Part shown: piece after piece, positions 676 through 38,033 of the stretch
How positions within the stretch are numbered: position 1 is the first letter of the stretch
How the letters are laid out: every line of letters begins with the position of its first letter
Source of the DNA: a phage
Sequence record: QB031380.1
Strand: one strand, 5' to 3'
Length of the DNA stretch: 44,130 bases
Program-made: the position numbers and the translations under genes
The notes under the pieces: generated by a model
Told to the model about the DNA's origin: nothing
Seen by the model: the letters and a program-made list of their open reading frames with translations, nothing else
Databases searched by the model: none

Positions 676-2106
676 ATGGCGATTAAACCAAAACGTAAAA
701 CGCAATCCGGTAGTAATACGGAACACTCATTACTTGGCCCATCCGGCGCTAAAAAATGGATGGGGTGTCCCGCCGCCCTGGTGGTAGAAAAAGATATCCC
801 GAACGTATCCGGGCAAGCGGCGATTAACGGTACGAGTATGCACACCGTATCGGAGGTGGTGCTAAACCGCATTATCGCCGGTGAGAAGAAAATAACCGCC
901 AAGACGTATAAAGGGTGCTACGTCGAGAACGAAGGCAAGGGTCCGGTAAAGGCCCACCCGAAAGCACCGAAAGGCGGCGTACTGGTCAACGACGATATGG
1001 TGAAACAGTGCGATGCATACATCGACCACTGGCGACCGCTCCTCGAAGTGGCGGAGTTTGTTCAGCTTGAGATGCGCGCCGATCTGACCCGCGTCCTTCA
1101 TTCAGGATTCGAGATCGACGGCAACAGGATTAAAACGTTCGGTACTGCCGATATGGTCATGGTCATGAAAAAGACCGACGGAACGTACATGCTGATTGTT
1201 GGCGACCTGAAGACCGGGCGGCATAAGGTCGAGGCGAAAGAAAACAAACAGCTTATGTTGTACGCGCTCGGACTGCTGCGCAAGCTGCAAACTATGTACG
1301 ACATTACGACCGTTCGCCTGGTTATCTTCCAGCCGTATTGCGGCGGGGCGTCGGAGTGGGATATTTCGGTAGAAGCGCTGGAGATATTCGCGAAGTTTGC
1401 ATCCAAGCGCGCTATTGCCGCACTGGAGGCGTATTCCCGAGGCAAGAAGGGACTAACCCGCGCCGACTTCCGGCCCAGCGTCGATGCGTGCCAGTGGTGC
1501 CGATTTGCGGATCAGTGTAGTGCCCGAGCTAAGGCCGCAATCGACACGATGACCCCACCGACGGCAACCGACGAAGACCTGGGCGACGACGTGAGTATTG
1601 CGACAGAGGAAGAATGCGCTAACCATGCCCGCAATATGGCCCGCGAAGCCCGGAAGGCGGCACGACGTGCGAAGCGTGGTAAGAAAGAAGCGGCCCCCGG
1701 CGCTATGAGCGCGGCGGAACTGCGCAAGGCGTATGAAGGTCTGGACGCAATGCGCCAGCACATCAAAGCTATCGAGTCCGCGGTATTCAAAGCGGTCATG
1801 GCGGGCGATGGCGAATCGTTGGGCCTTAAGATGGTTGCCGGTAAGGAAGGGATCCGTAAGTGGGCGGACGAGAGCGAAGTGATTGAAATCTTCACGAAGG
1901 CCCGGATTAAGCGCGATGTGATGTATAAAGAAACATTGCTCAGCCCGACCGATGCCGAGAAGGTGCTGAAGGACGAAAAACCGAAAGTGTGGGCGAAGCT
2001 GTGTGCTAAAATCACGCGCGCACCCGCTAAACCGGTGTTAGCACCAATCGACGACCCGCGCCCTGCGTGGTCGGAGGCCACTGACGAGGACTTAAGCAAT
2101 GAATAA
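676..2106 (+). CDS. PD-(D/E)XK nuclease, DUF2800-like (Cas4-like Cys cluster)
   Basis: 476 aa; C-terminal CQWCRFADQC cysteine motif; sits immediately upstream of a DUF2815-like gene and PolA. Confidence 0.65.
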   Translation: MAIKPKRKTQSGSNTEHSLLGPSGAKKWMGCPAALVVEKDIPNVSGQAAINGTSMHTVSEVVLNRIIAGEKKITAKTYKGCYVENEGKGPVKAHPKAPKGGVLVNDDMVKQCDAYIDHWRPLLEVAEFVQLEMRADLTRVLHSGFEIDGNRIKTFGTADMVMVMKKTDGTYMLIVGDLKTGRHKVEAKENKQLMLYALGLLRKLQTMYDITTVRLVIFQPYCGGASEWDISVEALEIFAKFASKRAIAALEAYSRGKKGLTRADFRPSVDACQWCRFADQCSARAKAAIDTMTPPTATDEDLGDDVSIATEEECANHARNMAREARKAARRAKRGKKEAAPGAMSAAELRKAYEGLDAMRQHIKAIESAVFKAVMAGDGESLGLKMVAGKEGIRKWADESEVIEIFTKARIKRDVMYKETLLSPTDAEKVLKDEKPKVWAKLCAKITRAPAKPVLAPIDDPRPAWSEATDEDLSNE

Positions 2107-2341
2107 AGTATTTGCGATCTTATTGATGTTTTTGCTCGGCGCGCTGGGCTTTATCCTGCATTGCGTGCAAGGCGTGTTAATGGTTGCGTGGATGATTCGC
2201 CATCCGACCCGCTGGCTGGATGACGGCTACAGCACCATCGCCGTGGCGTGGATTGCGAGACATGGCGACCGACCGCCGTTAAGCTGGATCGAGAACGCAA
2301 CCAACTACGTGACCAGAAATCTTTTTAATGAAAGTGCTTGA
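2099..2341 (+). CDS. small membrane protein
   Basis: 80 aa; hydrophobic N-terminus (AILLMFLLGALGFIL); ATG overlaps the upstream stop (ATGA). Confidence 0.45.
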   Translation: MNKVFAILLMFLLGALGFILHCVQGVLMVAWMIRHPTRWLDDGYSTIAVAWIARHGDRPPLSWIENATNYVTRNLFNESA

Positions 2342-2366
2342 CCGCTTAGGCGCAACCAAGTAGATT
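2338..2366 (+). promoter_or_regulatory. sigma70-like promoter TTGACC-N17-TAGATT with GCAACCAAG elements
   Basis: -35/-10 hexamers with 17 bp spacing; GCAACCAAG occurs in the spacer and again just after the -10. Confidence 0.4.
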
Positions 2367-2431
2367 AGCAACCAAGCCGAACGGGGTGGCTCACAATAAC
2401 CCCGATACATGTGAAAATGAGGAATTGGAAA

Positions 2432-3211
2432 ATGGCTAAAGTCAACCTGAAAAATGTGCGCGTATGTTTCCTTAAAATTTGGGAACGCGATACCCCTAAA
2501 CAGGATGGTCAAAAACCGGCATACCGTGCCGTGATTCTTCTGGATAAAGAAGATCCGCAGGTGGACAAAGTGGAAGCGGCAGCGCGCGCAGTGCTCACCG
2601 ACAAGCTGAAATCCGAGAAGAATGCCGATAAGTGGATGGACCGCCACTACGCCCAGGATTCTAAGGAATGCGCTGTTCGTGACGGTGACGAGCGCGACGA
2701 AGTAACCGAAGAATTTGAAGGCATGTTGTACATCAACGCCAAATCGTTCAAGCAGCCAAACATTCAAACGTCACTCGGCGAGAAGCAGACGGAACAAGGT
2801 CTGACCGTAGAAGGCGACGAGATCGAAGGCCAGGAGATCTACTCCGGTTGTTATTGCAACGTGTCCCTGGATATTTGGGCGTGGAACAATACCAACGGTA
2901 AAGGCCTCGGTGCGGGCTTACTGGGTCTTCGCTTCCGTGATGATGGTGAATCCTTCGGTGGTGGCGGTTCTTCCTGCTCCGACGAAGACCTGGACAACGA
3001 TGACGAAGATGAAAGCCCGCGCAAGTCCAAAAAGTCAAAACGTCGTGATGACGATGACGAAGACGACAAGCCGCGCAAGTCCAAAAAGTCCAAGCGCCGC
3101 GATGACGACGATGATGACGAAGACGAGAAACCTCGTAAACGTCGTAAGCCACGCGATGACGAAGATGAGGACGACGAAGACGAAGCGCCACGTAAACGTC
3201 GCCGCCGTTAA
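2432..3211 (+). CDS. DUF2815-like ssDNA-binding protein with repetitive acidic/basic C-terminal tail
   Basis: N-terminus MAKVNLKNVRV; position between DUF2800-like gene and PolA; track ORF starts at GTG 2411, ATG 2432 has a GAGGA RBS. Confidence 0.6.
   Translation: MAKVNLKNVRVCFLKIWERDTPKQDGQKPAYRAVILLDKEDPQVDKVEAAARAVLTDKLKSEKNADKWMDRHYAQDSKECAVRDGDERDEVTEEFEGMLYINAKSFKQPNIQTSLGEKQTEQGLTVEGDEIEGQEIYSGCYCNVSLDIWAWNNTNGKGLGAGLLGLRFRDDGESFGGGGSSCSDEDLDNDDEDESPRKSKKSKRRDDDDEDDKPRKSKKSKRRDDDDDDEDEKPRKRRKPRDDEDEDDEDEAPRKRRRR
2990..3205 (+). repeat. Tandem ~60 bp coding repeats (DDDDEDD-KPRKSKKSKRR units)
   Basis: Three to four near-identical nucleotide units encoding alternating acidic and basic blocks. 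Confidence 0.7.
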
Positions 3212-3225
3212 GGGCAAAGCCCACT

Positions 3226-3255
3226 ATTCAAGCCCGCTTAATGCGGGCTTTTTAA
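3226..3255 (+). terminator. Rho-independent terminator
   Basis: AAGCCCGC-ttaat-GCGGGCTT hairpin followed by TTTTT. Confidence 0.6.
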
Positions 3256-3269
3256 TAGGACAATGAAAA

Positions 3270-3440
3270 ATGCGTATTAAAGCCAGCGAAGTAAAAGTCG
3301 GAATGCAAGTATGGTCCAAAATGCTGGGCGAGTATTTCATCGTCGCCGAGATTCGCAACAACGGCGAGGAGATAACCCTTTCCGATGGTATCTTCTCCAT
3401 GATCGGCAGCGCCGACGCCGTAGTGAGGATTAAGCAATGA
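3270..3440 (+). CDS. small hypothetical protein (56 aa) translationally coupled to the DNA polymerase gene
   Basis: ATG with AGGA RBS; stop TGA overlaps the polymerase ATG (ATGA); below the 60 aa cutoff of the ORF track. Confidence 0.35.
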   Translation: MRIKASEVKVGMQVWSKMLGEYFIVAEIRNNGEEITLSDGIFSMIGSADAVVRIKQ

Positions 3441-9941: not shown

Positions 9942-10146
9942 TCGCAGTATGCGCGTCGTGGACGAAATTGTTAAACGCTACCAAATCAACCCGAGGGAGA
10001 ACAAAGTGCGTCGCGTGTCACGGCCGGAACACCTCCTGGGCATGGACCTTACTGGCTGGCTTGTAATGACTGCCCGCTGCCATCTTGTGTGTGACACGTG
10101 TTCCGCCCGTATTGTTCGTGCAAATTTGATTGAGGAATTGAAATGA
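9922..10146 (+). CDS. hypothetical protein
   Basis: 74 aa ORF coupled to neighbouring genes. Confidence 0.4.
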   Translation: MNILIVDRSMRVVDEIVKRYQINPRENKVRRVSRPEHLLGMDLTGWLVMTARCHLVCDTCSARIVRANLIEELK

Positions 10147-10613
10147 AACTACTTATTTGTGATCTGGATGGCGTTATTAATGGTTCAAGCGATGCGCGTG
10201 CCGACCTGGTGCCAGGGATAAAAACGAAATCCACCTTTTGGGCGAAGTGGCACAAAGCGCACGTCCGCGAAGACCTGAACATGGATATGCTGCCGCTGCT
10301 GCGCATGTATAAAGAGCAAGGCTTCGAGATCGCGTATCTGACCAACCGGCAGCGCGAATGCTGGGACACCACCGCCGAGCAATTGGAGGTCTTCCCGGTA
10401 GGCCGGTTGTTTATGCGCCACATGCTGGATGACACCCCGCCGCCAGAGTTTAAGGCGTGCGCCGTGTTCAAAATGGTCTGCTACGCGGACGTGTCGGAAC
10501 TGGTCATCATTGAAGATTGCGAGAAGAACATCGCGGCGATTCGTCGGGCGTGTGGTGATTTGGTCCCGAAAATTTACGCAATAAACGTTGCAAAATTCAC
10601 TTGCAACCAATAG
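10143..10613 (+). CDS. HAD-superfamily hydrolase-like protein
   Basis: N-terminal LICDLDGVI (HAD motif I DxDG), YLTNR (motif II), EDCEKN region. Confidence 0.5.
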   Translation: MKLLICDLDGVINGSSDARADLVPGIKTKSTFWAKWHKAHVREDLNMDMLPLLRMYKEQGFEIAYLTNRQRECWDTTAEQLEVFPVGRLFMRHMLDDTPPPEFKACAVFKMVCYADVSELVIIEDCEKNIAAIRRACGDLVPKIYAINVAKFTCNQ

Positions 10614-10631
10614 GTTGGTTGCACTATAGTA
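10602..10631 (+). promoter_or_regulatory. promoter-like TTGCAA-N18-TATAGT spanning palindrome TGCAACCAA-tagg-TTGGTTGCA
   Basis: Perfect inverted repeat of the 9-mer overlapping the hexamers. Confidence 0.4.
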
Positions 10632-10634
10632 AAC

Positions 10635-11198
10635 GTGTCGGGGCAATACAGCCCCCTCACTAAAAAGGGTAATACTGTGAAAGCATACGAATACTGCAAA
10701 AACGCCGCCACCACTATGGAACAGCGCGGGAAAGAAAACGGCTATGGCAACGAGAAAGAAGAACGCATCGCCAAACAGATCGCGGCCGTATTTAACGCGC
10801 TTACCTGTCGCGACCTTACCGAGCAAGACGCCTGGACCTTCCTGATCTGCCTGAAGCTGGTGCGCCAGCACCGTAAGCACCGGGATGATAACATCGTGGA
10901 TCTGGTGGCGTATGCCGCCCTGCTGGGCGAGTCTTACATGACCGTGCATGACGAGATTCAGATCGATACAACGGCAGCACAATTCGACAGCCTCAAAGGT
11001 TGGCCCATCGCCTCCGCCGGGACGTGGCATCCTTCTTCATCTGTGGGCAAGACTGTTAACGCCGCCAATTTTGGAGTTGTAGCCCAGGACGTCCAACCTA
11101 TGGTCGTGCTCACCGGCGAAGACGGATCGAAAATCTGCATGACGCAGGAAGATTTCCGCAACATGGAAAAAACACTGGTGACTGGCGCACTTAAATAG
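10635..11198 (+). CDS. hypothetical protein
   Basis: 187 aa ORF (GTG start in track; an alternative GTG lies at about 10677). Confidence 0.45.
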   Translation: MSGQYSPLTKKGNTVKAYEYCKNAATTMEQRGKENGYGNEKEERIAKQIAAVFNALTCRDLTEQDAWTFLICLKLVRQHRKHRDDNIVDLVAYAALLGESYMTVHDEIQIDTTAAQFDSLKGWPIASAGTWHPSSSVGKTVNAANFGVVAQDVQPMVVLTGEDGSKICMTQEDFRNMEKTLVTGALK

Positions 11199-33480: not shown

Positions 33481-34866
33481 TTAGTAGAAGTCTACGTTTG
33501 GAACAACGGCGATCGGACGAATCACAGGGAACAAGTGCGCAATAGGGTAGCCCGCTGCGTCATTCATGTGGTCCACACCGGCAGTTTTATCCGGCTCGCC
33601 TTTCTTCAGGTCGTACACCTGCTGTTCCAGACATTTCGCTAGTGTAGGGCATTTATCCAGGTTGACAAAATACTGGCGCACGCCCTTCGAGTTGCGCATC
33701 ATCGTATTCATCGCGATCAATCGGTCTTTAACAGGTGGGTTAACGCTGTCATATTCCACCTCAAAGCCTGCGTCTTCCAGTTGCGCGATATCGGACGACG
33801 ATGCGTTGACCGTTTTGCGGGATTTGCCGCTGCTATCAGGGTAAACTACGACCTTACCGGCGGCACAATGTTCCGGGTAGCGCTCCTCGATCGCCTCAAT
33901 CATAGCCGGGGTATCAAACAGGTCCACAAATTCGTCCACCGCGTGAATCTCGTCGCGGAACTCCTTGTTCTCGGTGACTCGCTGCCGTCTGACGTACACA
34001 ACCGCCGCCATTTTCGTGACGTTAAAATCCATACCGATAATCAGCGTGTCTTCCGGCTGCACTTCTTCGGTGCTTGCGTTCTCCTCACGGTTAAACATCT
34101 TGTATACCGCGCCCGACGTAAGGTTGACAAACAGGCCGTTCAGGTACGCGTCGATCAGGTTAGCTGGGTACTGACTACGCAGCGTGTCGATAAAGTCTGC
34201 CGGTAAATGGTGGTTGTCCGTGGTCTTCGCCCGGATCAAGCGTTTCTGGTTGTCTTTCTCCACCTCGAAAATTTGGTACATCGCCCGGTAGCCTTCCGGG
34301 GTGGACACGATGACGAACTGGCGGACAAAGCCAGCACGCAGACGACCGAGCAATTTGTGATATGCCGCCATTGCGACGTCTTGCTTCGTGGTGTCGAACT
34401 CGTCGGCAACAATCCACGCGGCGTTAACCCCGATTAGGCGGGTGTAGTTCTCCATTGATTCACAGATAACGCGGGTCCATTTGCCTTTCACCAGCACGTT
34501 ATAGATCTTGTCCTGCTTATTGAACTTCCACCGGAATCCAGCCTCATCAAACGCCTTTTCCAATTCCGGGTACATGATTTTAACCAGGAGGGGAATAGTC
34601 GGTTCTGTAACGATGCCGTCGTGACCGGGGTTCAGGGTTAAAAGCTGGATGACCTTACGCGCAGCGACCCACGACTTTCCACCACCGAAGCCGGAACACA
34701 GGCCGAGGATTTTAGTCTTCGTGTCACGCAGTAGTTCGACCTGGTGCGGAAGGCAATCAGGCTGGTAAAGGCGGACGGCCTGCGCAACGCGTGTTGGGCG
34801 CGGTGGTCGGTTGCGCTTTGCGATCGCGCGTTCCAGTGCGCGGTGTTCTGCCGCATAGTTACGCAT
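33481..34866 (-). CDS. terminase large subunit
   Basis: Walker A GFGGGKS, Walker B IVADEFD, C-terminal nuclease-like acidic motifs. Confidence 0.85.
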   Translation of the reverse strand: MRNYAAEHRALERAIAKRNRPPRPTRVAQAVRLYQPDCLPHQVELLRDTKTKILGLCSGFGGGKSWVAARKVIQLLTLNPGHDGIVTEPTIPLLVKIMYPELEKAFDEAGFRWKFNKQDKIYNVLVKGKWTRVICESMENYTRLIGVNAAWIVADEFDTTKQDVAMAAYHKLLGRLRAGFVRQFVIVSTPEGYRAMYQIFEVEKDNQKRLIRAKTTDNHHLPADFIDTLRSQYPANLIDAYLNGLFVNLTSGAVYKMFNREENASTEEVQPEDTLIIGMDFNVTKMAAVVYVRRQRVTENKEFRDEIHAVDEFVDLFDTPAMIEAIEERYPEHCAAGKVVVYPDSSGKSRKTVNASSSDIAQLEDAGFEVEYDSVNPPVKDRLIAMNTMMRNSKGVRQYFVNLDKCPTLAKCLEQQVYDLKKGEPDKTAGVDHMNDAAGYPIAHLFPVIRPIAVVPNVDFY

Positions 34867-35516
34867 TAATCACCCTGACCTTTGCCGGTGGGTTCCACAA
34901 CGACGTCGCCGTTATCATCTTCGTCGTCATCCAGCGGTACATCGTCGCGGACGCCGTGGTTTGCTTTAAGCAGGAATGTAGCGAAGCCCGCCGCGATGGT
35001 CACGCCGCCAGCTTCCATCAGGAAAGTTTTCTGCAACTCCATAGCATCCGCCATCGCCTCGGCGAACTCCTCATGTGCACGCGCCCAGCGATACAGGCAA
35101 GCTACGCCCACACCGATTTCCGCGGCAAATCGACCGAAGGTTGGCATTTTGTTGCGGGGGATTACTTGCGCAGCGCCTTTATCGGAGTAGTTGACCTGCC
35201 AGGCGTCGGCGTCGGCAAAATAGCGGCGAAGCTGGTCGCAGTAAACGGATCGGTAGTCAGTAGGGCGTCCACATTTGCCGCCTTTACGGCGCTTTCCGTA
35301 CTCGATTTCAGGTCCGAGATTGGTGTGCTCGGTTTGCTCGCCTGGTTTACGGCGCGGGGTTACCGCCACTCGTCCGTCCAGTTTGGCGCGTCGGCCCTTA
35401 ACTTTGATTTCTGCCATGATATAAGCCCTTTTGTTCATATGCGCCGACCATCGGCAACATAGGAGACGGCCCTGCCATCTAAGGGGGATTATAACAGGCA
35501 CAAAAAAGCCCACCAA
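34866..35516 (-). CDS. terminase small subunit
   Basis: Directly upstream of and overlapping the large subunit; likely true start at MAEIKVKG. Confidence 0.55.
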   Translation of the reverse strand: MVGFFVPVIIPLRWQGRLLCCRWSAHMNKRAYIMAEIKVKGRRAKLDGRVAVTPRRKPGEQTEHTNLGPEIEYGKRRKGGKCGRPTDYRSVYCDQLRRYFADADAWQVNYSDKGAAQVIPRNKMPTFGRFAAEIGVGVACLYRWARAHEEFAEAMADAMELQKTFLMEAGGVTIAAGFATFLLKANHGVRDDVPLDDDEDDNGDVVVEPTGKGQGD

Positions 35517-35534
35517 ATCGGCAGGCTGGGAGGA

Positions 35535-35747
35535 TTAAACGGCGCGACCGTAGTATCGGGTTAACATGCTTTCTACTTCGCGTATGGCGCCTTCTGTGTA
35601 GCGTATTTGAGATAGTATCTCGATCCGCTCACTGATAGACATGCCTATTGCCGCTGCCGTTCGTTCGAATCGGCGCAAGCCTTCGAGTTGTTTGCGTAGC
35701 TCTTTCAGGCGGGTGGCCTGCGTGCTCATGAATACTTGTCTGATCAT
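35535..35747 (-). CDS. hypothetical protein
   Basis: 70 aa ORF between the phosphoesterase and small terminase genes. Confidence 0.4.
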   Translation of the reverse strand: MIRQVFMSTQATRLKELRKQLEGLRRFERTAAAIGMSISERIEILSQIRYTEGAIREVESMLTRYYGRAV

Positions 35748-36886
35748 TTCAACATTTCCGGGCTAATGGTTAAGCGCGCTACTTCGCCGTAGTTGGCGCT
35801 GTAGGTAATGACGTTGGCACTGCGACCGCTCATCCAGCCGCCGCGGCTGGCGTAGGCGTCTTTCGCTGCGAGCGTCCGGTGCTGTTCAACAATCATGTTG
35901 CGAGACTCGACAATCTTCTGGTGGTGCAAATGACCTACGTGCGCGTAGCTGTATTCGCTCGACCCGAACGCCTGTCTGAATTTAGCGATCATAACCTGCT
36001 CGATAGCATCGAATCGCGCTTTGTGCCCGTGGTGGAAAAACAGCGTGGTCTTACCGTGCTGCACCATTTTGTAGACGTCCGGGGACGTATCCACATCGAC
36101 GCGCGGCTCGTTCTCGTACAGCGTGTTGAACATCTCAGCAAGCCAAATCATGCCCGACTCGTCATGATTACCCTGGACGATTAGCAGTTTGACTTTATGG
36201 TGTTTTTGCAGCGCCAGGTCTACGACGTTGCGCACCATGCGTATCATATAGCGGACCAACTTCTGGTATCGAGTGTCGGCATCCAGTACGTGACCGCTGG
36301 CTGGTGTGACGGCATCAAGGCTATCAAAGTGCGCCATATCGCCGAGGATATTGATAACGGCAGTGCCTGCGTCCGGTGCGCGTGCGAAGGCTTCGACAAA
36401 CCAGCGGTAGAACAGGTCTTCGGCGATCGCCATATCCCAGTCTTCGCCAGTCTCCTCACCCCATGCCAGCATACCCAAGTGGAAGTCGGACACCGTGTAC
36501 AGGTTGAGCAAGTCGAGCGCCTGGATCGGGACTGGCGGGGCGTTTACTGGCGCTGCCGGTGTAATTTCGCTGTTCATACCCTCGACAACAGCGCGCATTG
36601 CTTCGAGTTGGCGCTCCTTGTCCTGCTCAGTGATGACCCACGACATGACCTCCTCGCCATTGCCGCGCACCAGGGCAGACACGCGCTTAACCCCAAACCC
36701 ATCTGCAACGCGCTTACGGATCACTGCATCATTGCCGTGACCAATCCCCTTTTTCGACAGGCGGGCTTTGCGCATATAGACATTGCGCAGGGCAATCCCG
36801 TATTTCTTCGCAATCTCTTTAACCGTAGTCCCTGCCTGAATTTCTGCGATCAATTGCTCATCGGTGATTTTAGTTTGCGGGTGCAT
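35744..36886 (-). CDS. calcineurin-like metallophosphoesterase with N-terminal HTH-like domain
   Basis: GDMAHFD, GNHDE and HHGH motifs; N-terminal TVKEIAKKYGIALRNVYMRKARL. Confidence 0.55.
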   Translation of the reverse strand: MHPQTKITDEQLIAEIQAGTTVKEIAKKYGIALRNVYMRKARLSKKGIGHGNDAVIRKRVADGFGVKRVSALVRGNGEEVMSWVITEQDKERQLEAMRAVVEGMNSEITPAAPVNAPPVPIQALDLLNLYTVSDFHLGMLAWGEETGEDWDMAIAEDLFYRWFVEAFARAPDAGTAVINILGDMAHFDSLDAVTPASGHVLDADTRYQKLVRYMIRMVRNVVDLALQKHHKVKLLIVQGNHDESGMIWLAEMFNTLYENEPRVDVDTSPDVYKMVQHGKTTLFFHHGHKARFDAIEQVMIAKFRQAFGSSEYSYAHVGHLHHQKIVESRNMIVEQHRTLAAKDAYASRGGWMSGRSANVITYSANYGEVARLTISPEMLK

Positions 36887-36947
36887 ATTTAATTAATTCC
36901 TGATTAGTGGACCGTGGACAATATACCACGGTCCATATGGTGGCGGG

Positions 36948-37028
36948 CTATATCAATTCGCAAATAACCATGCCGATGAAAGCCGCGGTGGTCCAGATTG
37001 CTAATACCCAAATATCGTTACGTGTCAT
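36948..37028 (-). CDS. putative 26 aa hydrophobic peptide
   Basis: ATG preceded by AAGAGGAG RBS; peptide MTRNDIWVLAIWTTAAFIGMVICELI. Confidence 0.25.
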   Translation of the reverse strand: MTRNDIWVLAIWTTAAFIGMVICELI

Positions 37029-37091
37029 CTTGATTACTCCTCTTATTGGTTGGTTGCAGTATGGCCCCTATGTTGGTTGCAAGTCAAGCAA

Positions 37092-37125
37092 TAAAAAGCC
37101 CGGTATTATCCGGGCTTGTTGGTTT
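37092..37125. terminator. bidirectional terminator
   Basis: AAAAA-GCCCGG-tattat-CCGGGC-TTGTTGGTTT. Confidence 0.55.
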
Positions 37126-37525
37126 ACGCGGCTGCCGTTACTGTGAAGCCTGCGTCAGCCTGCACCCTACTGCCGTCGGACGCCACCCAAACGATGCGGA
37201 CGTTACCCGCCGCTTTCGCTGTGATTTCGCCGGTAGTCGGATTGATTGAGGCGCGGTTAGGGTTAGCCGACACCCACGATCCGGCCTTGTTGGTAGCGTC
37301 GGATGGCAGGATGGCAACCGTCGCGGTGGCTGTCTCTCCGACGGCGGCGGTAACTGGATCGATGGTAACGGTCGCACTTGTCACCGGCTTACCTTCAGGC
37401 ACGGCCTTGTCGAAGACGCCTGAGATATTCATATCGCCAGCCAGGATGCGGCGCGCTTCTGGGTTCTGCACTGCGGGCAGTGTCTTGATAATGCGTTCTT
37501 TACGTCGCAAGATCGAATCTAACAT
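37124..37525 (-). CDS. Ig-like (Big_2-type) domain protein
   Basis: 133 aa; Thr/Ala/Val-rich beta-strand pattern typical of bacterial Ig-like domains. Confidence 0.5.
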   Translation of the reverse strand: MLDSILRRKERIIKTLPAVQNPEARRILAGDMNISGVFDKAVPEGKPVTSATVTIDPVTAAVGETATATVAILPSDATNKAGSWVSANPNRASINPTTGEITAKAAGNVRIVWVASDGSRVQADAGFTVTAAA

Positions 37526-37541: not shown

Positions 37542-38033
37542 TTATGCAGCGTTACGACCGATTCGCTCGGCAACGTCCCACTGCTTACCATCAAACAACG
37601 CCTGTCTGCCGATTGCACGGCGTACCAGACCCTTTAACACTTCACCGCCTTGCTTGCGGAACTGCGGCAGAGTAGCACGGACCTTCGCCCAGTCGCCCAG
37701 TCGCACCGCGTCATCGAAATCATTCGCGACGTCATCCGGTACGATAGGACCAGGACCGGCGTTGATTACCAGGTCCACCAGCGCGTCGAATTGCGCCTGG
37801 TTAATGCTTGGATGTGCGTATTTGTTCACCCAGTCCTCGGCATACGCCACGTCGCGCTTTAGCAGTTCCAGCGCTTCCGCGCGGGTAATGCTTCGAGGCG
37901 GATTAGTGCCCGTATGACCATAGCCCCAGGTGTACAGGCCGCGGGCCTGCTCTTTCTTGGTTGCGAAATACGGCACCGGGCTGAAAGCCTCCCATGCTGC
38001 CGTAAATCTTAGACCGTTGTCACTGAATCGCAT
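37542..38033 (-). CDS. endolysin (phage lysozyme, GH24-like)
   Basis: E...Y.W.YGHTG and QAQFDALVDLVINAG pattern typical of phage lysozymes; preceded by two membrane-protein genes. Confidence 0.8.
   Translation of the reverse strand: MRFSDNGLRFTAAWEAFSPVPYFATKKEQARGLYTWGYGHTGTNPPRSITRAEALELLKRDVAYAEDWVNKYAHPSINQAQFDALVDLVINAGPGPIVPDDVANDFDDAVRLGDWAKVRATLPQFRKQGGEVLKGLVRRAIGRQALFDGKQWDVAERIGRNAA

Follow-up and report, generated by a model that had tools for sequence, protein, structure and literature searches.

A helix-turn-helix metallophosphoesterase encoded between the lysis and terminase genes of a Dhillonvirus: a candidate nuclease of the host chromosome

The DNA considered here is a stretch of 44,130 nucleotides from a phage (record QB031380.1), called the window in what follows. 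One of its genes encodes a protein, labeled HTH-MPE below, in which an N-terminal helix-turn-helix (HTH) is fused to a metallophosphoesterase (MPE) core whose catalytic residues are intact. We propose, with a probability of roughly 0.4 and by analogy alone with two other phage proteins, that it is an HTH-tethered, metal-dependent DNA phosphodiesterase whose most likely target is the host chromosome. That it is a DNA nuclease of some kind, whatever the target, seems to us rather probable.

Results

The gene and its phage

A stretch of 4.7 kb around the gene matches 157 phage records at 89-95% DNA identity, nearly all of them Escherichia Dhillonvirus; phage vB_EcoS_011D5, at 95.4%, is one example. 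Judged by these matches, the window comes from a Dhillonvirus of the HK578/SSL-2009a type, a phage of E. coli. The order of genes on the minus strand is: two holin-like genes, lysozyme, Big_2, HTH-MPE, an ORF of 70 amino acids, small terminase, large terminase and portal. The reading frame given in the preliminary description holds to the nucleotide, with an ATG start. The main genes, and the parts of the protein discussed below, are:

37542..38033, minus strand: lysozyme gene
37124..37525, minus strand: gene of a Big_2 Ig-like protein
35744..36886, minus strand: HTH-metallophosphoesterase gene, 380 aa, ATG start; PHROG 704 / T1 gp16-like
36752..36862, minus strand: N-terminal three-helix HTH, residues 9-45, of sigma-70 region 4 / LuxR-GerE type
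36572..36697, minus strand: family-specific beta-hairpin (64-88) and helix (90-105) after the linker, with nearly invariant G77 and W83
35762..36511, minus strand: metallophosphoesterase core, residues 126-375, motifs I-V (D134xH136, G182D183xxH186, G239N240H241D242, H285H286GH288, G318H319xH321)
33481..34866, minus strand: large terminase gene (TerL)

The catalytic core

The preliminary description had named three motifs, and each is where it should be: GDMAH at residues 182-186, GNHDE at 239-243 and HHGH at 285-288. Two others can be added, D134-F-H136 (motif I) and G318-H-L-H-H322 (motif V), and all five members of the superfamily set, DxH, GDxx(D/H), GNH(D/E), H and GHxH, are matched. In an alignment of 59 homologues, with identities of 32-48%, residues D134, H136, G182, D183, N240, H241, H286, G318 and H321 are invariant, which is far beyond chance; the metallophosphoesterase assignment had been made to depend on the conservation of metal ligands in homologues, and this is what the alignment displays. 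The five motifs are also retained across 11 phage lineages. Values of dN/dS of 0.019 and 0.047 against two Dhillonviruses indicate that the gene is under strong purifying selection and, since the catalytic metal ligands are all invariant across the family, catalysis itself appears to be under selection.

Pfam models are less generous. The best match, Metallophos_2 (YfcE/MJ0936 type), scores 23.7 bits for a gathering threshold of 27, and Metallophos scores 20.2 for a threshold of 21.5: both are just below, and the family is therefore divergent. The assignment to the superfamily is carried by the motifs and the predicted fold, not by the Pfam score.

The helix-turn-helix and the linker

In the single sequence, the Pfam score of the HTH is weak (GerE E=0.017, HTH_28 E=0.026). 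The AlphaFold model has three helices at residues 9-17, 22-29 and 33-45, with pLDDT of about 88-93, and members of the family match the Sigma70_r4_2, GerE, HTH_1 and Fis-type models, with best scores of E=1.5e-9 for Sigma70_r4_2 and E=2.4e-8 for GerE. A family-specific profile recovers the domain in 123 of the 141 full-length representatives, or 87%. Given the three modeled helices and this count, the N-terminal segment that had been called HTH-like is a real feature of the family. A disordered linker, residues 46-62, separates it from the beta-hairpin; a homologue in a Campylobacter phage is without the HTH and retains the beta-hairpin, the helix and the core.

Predicted structure

The AlphaFold model is confident (pLDDT 90.5, pTM 0.81), has the beta-sandwich alpha/beta fold of metallophosphoesterases, and resembles dozens of solved structures of this superfamily. 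Structure prediction, proposed earlier as a check, thus yields a confident MPE fold; together with the motifs and the family HTH, it bears out the proposed fusion of an HTH to a calcineurin-like metallophosphoesterase.

The top structural matches are the DNA nucleases DP1, Mre11 and SbcD; small-molecule enzymes follow closely, with LpxH at 14.2 and MJ0936 at 13.8, and the protein phosphatase PP5 scores 9.2 in the same comparison. Taken on its own, this margin in fold is thin, and Foldseek, which confirms the fold, barely tells the subfamilies apart. Searches of the PDB, by sequence and by family profile, found no close relative among solved structures: the single protein returned spurious repeat-protein matches only, and the family profile only weak matches to HTH proteins and Mre11, those to Mre11/SbcD having E=0.4-1.8 and spanning motifs I-II. 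A search of NCBIfam with the protein gave nothing significant. A PPP-type, lambda PPase-like phosphatase would be recognized by the motifs GDxHG, GDxVDRG and GNHE, and by a PPP fold as nearest neighbour; this combination does not describe the protein, in which GDxHG and GDxVDRG were looked for and are absent.

A large family with T1 gp16 as a member

The protein matches PHROG 704 ("DNA repair exonuclease") with E=1.2e-161, residues 5-380 covering profile positions 2-390 of 390, and is 45% identical to T1 gp16 (ST16) over 377 amino acids, HTH included. On these alignments, it is a full-length member of the PHROG 704 / T1 gp16-like family. T1 gp16 has the same architecture from end to end (HTH, linker, beta-hairpin and helix, MPE core), and the only difference is one of position: the gene lies in the interval between Dam and lysis in T1, and between lysis and terminase in Dhillonvirus.

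The family is found in Drexlerviridae, Dhillonvirus, Jersey/Kaguna-like phages, Webervirus, Jedunavirus and Casjensviridae. A tblastn search returns 2,063 phage records with a homologue, from phages of Escherichia, Klebsiella, Salmonella, Vibrio, Rhodobacter and others, and an exhaustive HMMER search yields 4,682 clusters at 50% identity. Copies with at least 90% identity occur in about 155 phage records, to be compared with the 157 that match the Dhillonvirus region; this near-universal presence, and the strong purifying selection, led us to reject the idea of a homing endonuclease or other selfish element. A scan of contigs with two narrow, insensitive peptide patterns found 14 loci. In two large contigs, the copies are each split into two ORFs, which may be decay or assembly error.

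Depositors have called these proteins "putative phosphoesterase", "DNA repair exonuclease", "winged helix-turn-helix domain-containing protein", "DNA polymerase small subunit" or "hypothetical". Sequence, family and domain make-up are thus already in databases, and a phage nuclease of the MPE superfamily is a known kind of enzyme; the literature searched holds no functional test of a PHROG 704 / T1 gp16-like member.

A small transcription unit

We now turn to the elements that flank the gene:

37096..37117, minus strand: terminator-like hairpin 3' of the Big_2 gene, an 8-bp G+C-rich stem followed by TTTATTGCTT; upstream boundary of the small unit
37058..37087, minus strand: sigma-70 promoter-like motif TTGACT-18-CATACT, 9/12 matches, weak evidence
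36948..37028, minus strand: hydrophobic ORF of 26 aa (MTRNDIWVLAIWTTAAFIGMVICELI), with AAGAGGAG just before it
36908..36935, no strand assigned: TGGACCGTGG-N8-CCACGGTCCA, a perfect inverted repeat that lies 22 nt ahead of the start codon
35535..35747, minus strand: ORF of 70 aa, PHROG 20931 (E=5.5e-48), overlapping the stop codon of the MPE gene (ATGA)
35507..35527, minus strand: terminator-like hairpin followed by TTTTTT, closing the MPE unit ahead of the terminase genes; identical in 011D5
35488..35516, minus strand: promoter-like TTGGTG-17-TATAAT with extended -10 TG, ahead of the start of the small terminase; read from the sequence, 100% conserved in 011D5

The preliminary description had placed a terminator and a promoter-like motif upstream of the gene. 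Both are present, but they do not fare equally well. The hairpin keeps its stem in phages 011D5 and HH3, with a variable loop. The promoter-like motif is one of 4 such matches in the region, where shuffled sequences give 2.9 +/- 1.6, and the real count is not above them; the -35 half is conserved, but HH3 has a deletion of the -10 half, so we give this motif little weight.

The ORF of 26 amino acids is conserved in 011D5 and HH3, with changes that are mostly synonymous; it probably encodes a small membrane peptide and shares a transcript with the MPE gene. In HH3, the region is annotated as a read-through ORF of 52 amino acids. The inverted repeat is identical in three Dhillonviruses and folds with a centroid energy of -21 kcal/mol (z = -2.1). 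It may correspond to an RNA hairpin or to a palindrome that binds a protein. It was sought upstream of homologues in other lineages and is absent there. Autoregulation through this palindrome, which we considered, is unsupported beyond Dhillonvirus, and the window holds a single copy.

On the other side of the gene, the ORF of 70 amino acids was seen, among the records examined, only in Dhillonvirus; the genes 3' of the MPE gene are different in Kaguna-like, Jersey-like and T1-like phages. The small terminase starts at the ATG at 35438, the mechanical ORF start at 35516 being unused by homologues, and the stretch from the end of the 70-aa ORF to the small terminase is identical in 011D5. The promoter-like motif in this stretch was missed by the promoter scan because its -35 hexamer matches only 3 of 6 bases. 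From this arrangement, the 26-aa peptide, HTH-MPE and the 70-aa protein appear to form a small transcription unit of their own, apart from the terminase genes. In T1, too, the gene belongs to a small unit, which ends at an annotated terminator of its own.

Positions across lineages

The gene had been described as lying just upstream of the terminase genes, at the head of the packaging operon. The position is literally right, but between the gene and terminase come the 70-aa ORF, the terminator-like hairpin and a further promoter-like motif. The operon does not survive the comparison: a hairpin at 35527..35507 closes the unit, the small terminase (TerS) has its own promoter-like motif, and the linkage does not hold in most other lineages.

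The last statement is based on the neighbourhoods of 12 annotated lineages. Linkage to terminase genes is absent in T1, Hanrivervirus, Jersey, Kaguna, Webervirus, Rhodobacter, Vibrio and Ruegeria phages; among the lineages examined, Jedunavirus is the only other one with terminase genes downstream. T1 and Hanrivervirus have the gene between Dam with some small ORFs and the lysis cassette, and in T1 it is about 16 kb upstream of TerS around the circularly permuted map. Jersey- and Kaguna-like phages carry it inside the tail module, in an island on the opposite strand: it comes after a small membrane protein gene, and shares the island further with an HNH endonuclease or an anti-repressor. The Rhodobacter phage has it behind the lysis genes, the Vibrio phage ahead of an HNH endonuclease, and the Ruegeria phage ahead of a methylase. 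In Webervirus and Jedunavirus, it is directly followed by a PNK-type HAD phosphatase, then by a dNMP kinase; the "polynucleotide kinase" of these phages is the HAD phosphatase domain of PNKP, and the Jedunavirus terminase genes are further downstream. The positions of the gene are independent of packaging.

Comparison with known metallophosphoesterase nucleases

Two phage proteins of the superfamily are natural terms of comparison. The first is A1 of phage T5, a predicted metallo-phosphatase that is said to resemble nucleases of double-strand break (DSB) repair and proofreading subunits of polymerases, and that is necessary and sufficient for degradation of the host chromosome in vivo (bioRxiv 10.64898/2026.04.02.716235). 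Like HTH-MPE, A1 (PHROG 1745) has all five motifs, as seen in an alignment of eight A1 homologues, and the neighbours ascribed to it are the structural neighbours of HTH-MPE. A1 also has a small membrane-protein gene just upstream, as HTH-MPE probably does, and it works together with A2, a DNA-binding protein whose gene lies two genes before it, where HTH-MPE has the DNA-binding domain fused; in T5-like phages, PNK or the dNMP phosphatase dmp comes right after A1, mirroring the order MPE, PNK-phosphatase and dNMP kinase of Webervirus and Jedunavirus; and the C-terminal motifs are alike, GYNxGxSSW..HIITY against DAYAxRGGW..VITY. There are differences too. A1 is 556 amino acids long, with another N-terminal half, and it is also required for second-step DNA transfer, a process specific to T5. 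Aligned with the HTH-MPE family by hhalign, A1 gives E=8e-4 and a probability of 24%, and the 130 aligned columns run only from motif III to the C-terminus. PHROG searches give no reciprocal matches between the A1 family and PHROG 704, and the cross-matches of A1 go to PHROG 221, a family of mycobacteriophages. By analogy, then, HTH-MPE proteins may act as A1 does, but they are not demonstrably members of its family.

The second is Gp48 of mycobacteriophage A10ZJ24, an early protein with phosphodiesterase and DNase activity in vitro; in vivo it breaks down the genome of the host, and it silences genes of host defence (PMC12287305). Gp48, Bxb1 gp47 and L5 gp54 belong to PHROG 221: these are phage metallophosphoesterases like HTH-MPE, but they have about 230-255 amino acids and no HTH, and their motif I starts at D10. 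Bxb1 gp47 is also an excision directionality factor. With hhalign, its probability is 4.3% over 37 columns, a likeness at the level of the superfamily only, and the PHROG search of HTH-MPE returned no match to PHROG 221.

Mre11, SbcD and T4 gp47, and DP1, the proofreading exonuclease of archaeal PolD, have 13-18% sequence identity with HTH-MPE. The capping domain of Mre11/SbcD is absent, since the model ends at residue 380, right behind the last core strand and a short helix and 5 residues past the core; the OB domain of DP1 is absent as well, and HTH-MPE has the N-terminal HTH instead. No Rad50/SbcC partner gene is annotated in the complete genome of Dhillonvirus HH3, no ATPase of this type was found among ten replication-arm proteins scanned in the window, and a polymerase partner gene, as for DP1, was not found either. 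Neither Pfam nor NCBIfam gave a match to SbcD/Mre11 models. By its sequence and its model, HTH-MPE is not a canonical Mre11/SbcD.

Discussion

Assuming that the family acts as its architecture suggests, the mechanism would be the following. The HTH, of sigma-r4/LuxR type, would keep the protein on DNA; the flexible linker would connect it to the core, a binuclear-metal phosphodiesterase of the Mre11/SbcD/PolD-DP1 type, which would hydrolyse phosphodiester bonds of DNA. If the DNA is that of the host, breakdown of the chromosome would shut down the host and its defences, and feed nucleotide salvage, in parallel with the MPE proteins T5 A1 and A10ZJ24 Gp48. We infer both the substrate and the target by analogy. 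The earlier suggestion of a role in nucleic acid processing gains from the comparison: the best structural matches are DNA nucleases and, with a DNA-binding domain fused in 87% of full-length representatives, DNA is the most economical substrate. The suggestion of dephosphorylation of host proteins is not favoured, since GDxHG and GDxVDRG are absent.

What points to host DNA in particular is, on the one hand, the setting of the gene in Webervirus and Jedunavirus, where a PNK-type phosphatase and a dNMP kinase come right after it, and, on the other, phage T1, which carries the family as gp16/ST16. Both T1 and TLS break down the genome of their host and recycle its nucleotides, and the gene product responsible had not been named as of the 2024 reannotation of TLS (PMC11447400). 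According to the account of Roberts and Drexler 1981 given there, T1 mutants with a defect in host degradation are better transducers; the T1 gp16-like family may be the function hit in these mutants. The same reannotation lists a "proof-reading exonuclease (gp66)" (PMC11447400). TLS gp66 is probably a member of the HTH-MPE family. Several points weigh on the other side. The relation to T5 A1 or to Gp48/Bxb1 gp47 is not specific (hhalign 24% and 4%), the PNK-like phosphatase gene of the window is 25 kb away from HTH-MPE, and the literature searched holds no reports on host DNA degradation by Dhillonviruses. The T1 genome paper reportedly ascribed host DNA degradation to HNH endonucleases. The context of the Campylobacter phage, with a ligase and a Holliday-junction resolvase, better suits recombination. 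The broader statement, that the T1 gp16-like family is the nuclease by which T1-type phages and related virulent siphophages break down the host chromosome, is more doubtful, and we hold it as a tentative conjecture.

The main rival is a nuclease acting, like Mre11, SbcD or T4 gp47, on the DNA of the phage itself during replication or recombination. It would process ends, hairpins or stalled forks for recombination-dependent replication and the formation of concatemers, the HTH replacing Rad50/SbcC as the handle on DNA. Mre11, SbcD and DP1 are indeed the top structural matches, PHROG 284 'exonuclease' gives a cross-match at E=1.3e-13, the gene of T1-like phages comes after helicase, VRR-NUC and Dam, and the copy in Campylobacter phage F370, beside the DNA ligase and the Holliday-junction resolvase, bears the depositor label 'T1 gp16-like; gp47'. 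However, the protein stops 5 residues past its core with no capping domain, the annotation of the Dhillonvirus genome lists no Rad50/SbcC-like gene, a PD-(D/E)XK exonuclease and a gp2.5-like annealing protein are already among the proteins of the phage, and the opposite-strand island in the tail module of Jersey/Kaguna-like phages is not a replication module. We regard this rival as possible, at perhaps a little over half the weight of the host-chromosome reading. Rather unlikely, in our opinion, is a phosphodiesterase of anti-defence or metabolic function with small-molecule substrates, either cyclic or linear nucleotide signals or nucleotides, with an HTH for autoregulation or localisation. 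A fused DNA-binding domain in 87% of representatives is hard to explain for a soluble enzyme, PADLOC gives no matches, and no anti-signalling phage protein with the MPE fold was found in the literature searched; these outweigh the type of the best Pfam match, Metallophos_2, the moron-like island of Jersey/Kaguna phages, and the unique palindrome just upstream, which could be an operator but was not found ahead of the homologues of other lineages.

The same palindrome, conserved in Dhillonvirus, could also be read as a sign that the protein is mainly a transcription regulator of the transition from lysis to packaging, or of its own unit, with the metallophosphoesterase as a sensor or accessory module. 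The matches of the HTH to the Sigma70_r4_2, GerE, HTH_1 and Fis-type families fit this idea, as does the place of the gene at a module boundary beside lysis genes in four lineages. But the metal ligands are invariant across the family, with catalysis apparently under selection, the Campylobacter phage homologue keeps the core and not the HTH, and the genome holds no repeated copies of an operator-like palindrome: we consider a regulator improbable. Least credible of all is a protein that serves packaging as an accessory nuclease of terminase, or that dephosphorylates host proteins. Lambda-type phage protein phosphatases do belong to the same superfamily, and the gene is 0.3 kb upstream of the small terminase in Dhillonvirus, and upstream of terminase in Jedunavirus as well; yet between it and TerS stand a terminator-like hairpin and another promoter-like motif, the T1 gene is about 16 kb from TerS and has its own terminator, the Jersey, Kaguna, Rhodobacter, Vibrio and Ruegeria lineages have it elsewhere, and TerL carries its own RNase H-like nuclease domain.

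The reading that we prefer thus remains the host-chromosome phosphodiesterase. The family is large, is annotated by fold only, and includes T1 together with many Klebsiella, Salmonella and E. coli phages that are candidates for therapy; two different phage MPE proteins were tied to the destruction of host DNA only in 2025-2026. Since the enzyme that degrades host DNA in T1 and TLS has not been identified (PMC11447400), these MPE precedents make the HTH-MPE gene a concrete and easily testable candidate. If it is not a host-DNA nuclease, it would be an ordinary conserved accessory nuclease. If it is, the finding would bear on rates of generalized transduction, a safety issue in phage therapy, and on the triggering of defences that sense the breakdown of the chromosome. 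If the family is the host-chromosome nuclease of T1-type phages, the fusion would be a one-protein counterpart of the A1 system of T5: a common weapon of host takeover and nucleotide salvage across thousands of phages, and a likely source of signals, DNA damage or dNMPs, that several defence systems detect.

Surroundings of the metallophosphoesterase gene

The metallophosphoesterase (MPE) gene, at 35744..36886 on the minus strand, lies among several small features, listed here in order of position:

35439-35534, minus strand: terminator-like hairpin with T6 after it; promoter-like TTGGTG-17-TATAAT (extended -10 TG)
36908-36935: perfect inverted repeat, its 10-bp arms separated by 8 nt, 22 nt 5' of the MPE start codon
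36948-37028, minus strand: 26-aa ORF coding for a hydrophobic peptide, MTRNDIWVLAIWTTAAFIGMVICELI; strong RBS; immediately 5' of the MPE gene
37124-37525, minus strand: Big_2 Ig-like protein of 133 aa (PHROG 215, "structural protein with Ig domain")

The first of these lies ahead of the small terminase start used by homologues, the ATG at 35438; the ORF as listed starts at a TTG at 35516. The hairpin, the T6 and the promoter-like motif are all identical in the Dhillonvirus 011D5.

The inverted repeat occurs once in the window, lacks a T-run, and is present with the same sequence in three Dhillonviruses; it was not found upstream of MPE-gene homologues from other lineages. It may serve as an operator, in RNA stability or in processing.

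Sequence comparison shows that the 26-aa ORF is kept in 011D5 and in a second Dhillonvirus, HH3, with mostly synonymous changes, and that in HH3 read-through extends it to 52 aa. The MPE gene of Jersey/Kaguna-like phages is likewise preceded by small membrane-protein genes, and T5 has one between A2, a DNA-binding protein gene, and A1, its predicted metallo-phosphatase gene.

No gene but the Ig-like one separates the endolysin from the MPE unit. Its region varies across Dhillonviruses: HH3 has only a truncated fragment of 55 aa.

The replication arm carries a phosphatase-like gene:

10143-11198, plus strand: PNK-phosphatase-like HAD protein (PHROG 415, E=1.9e-36); the next gene encodes a DUF6378 protein

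The PHROGs label of the DUF6378 protein is "phosphofructokinase"; a gene with the same label is found in Bxb1, two genes from its MPE.

Homologues in other genomes

When species-representative bacterial genomes were scanned, only two of the MPE-gene homologues were on large contigs, of 390 kb and 2.75 Mb. In both (L031 5920-7099 and L034 5638-6760) the gene is broken into two overlapping ORFs, which could reflect decay in integrated elements or an assembly error.

The labels of some phage records look wrong. vB_EcoM_SHAK7693 (OR594180.1) is filed as Autographiviridae/Kayfunavirus, yet its tail module is that of a siphovirus and its MPE island is Kaguna-like; OQ221563.1, labelled "Acinetobacter phage NJ01", shares 94% DNA identity with E. 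coli Dhillonviruses.

One Vibrio homologue of T5 A1 is annotated as "homeodomain-like". In T5 A1 itself (L013, the A1 locus, 1706-3376), alignment places all five MPE motifs in the C-terminal half:

GDxH 303-306; HD 339-340; SNHD 395-398; HGH 476-478; GHTH 500-503

These five motifs are invariant among the eight homologues aligned, from Demerecviridae, Autographiviridae, and Caulobacter and Flavobacterium phages.
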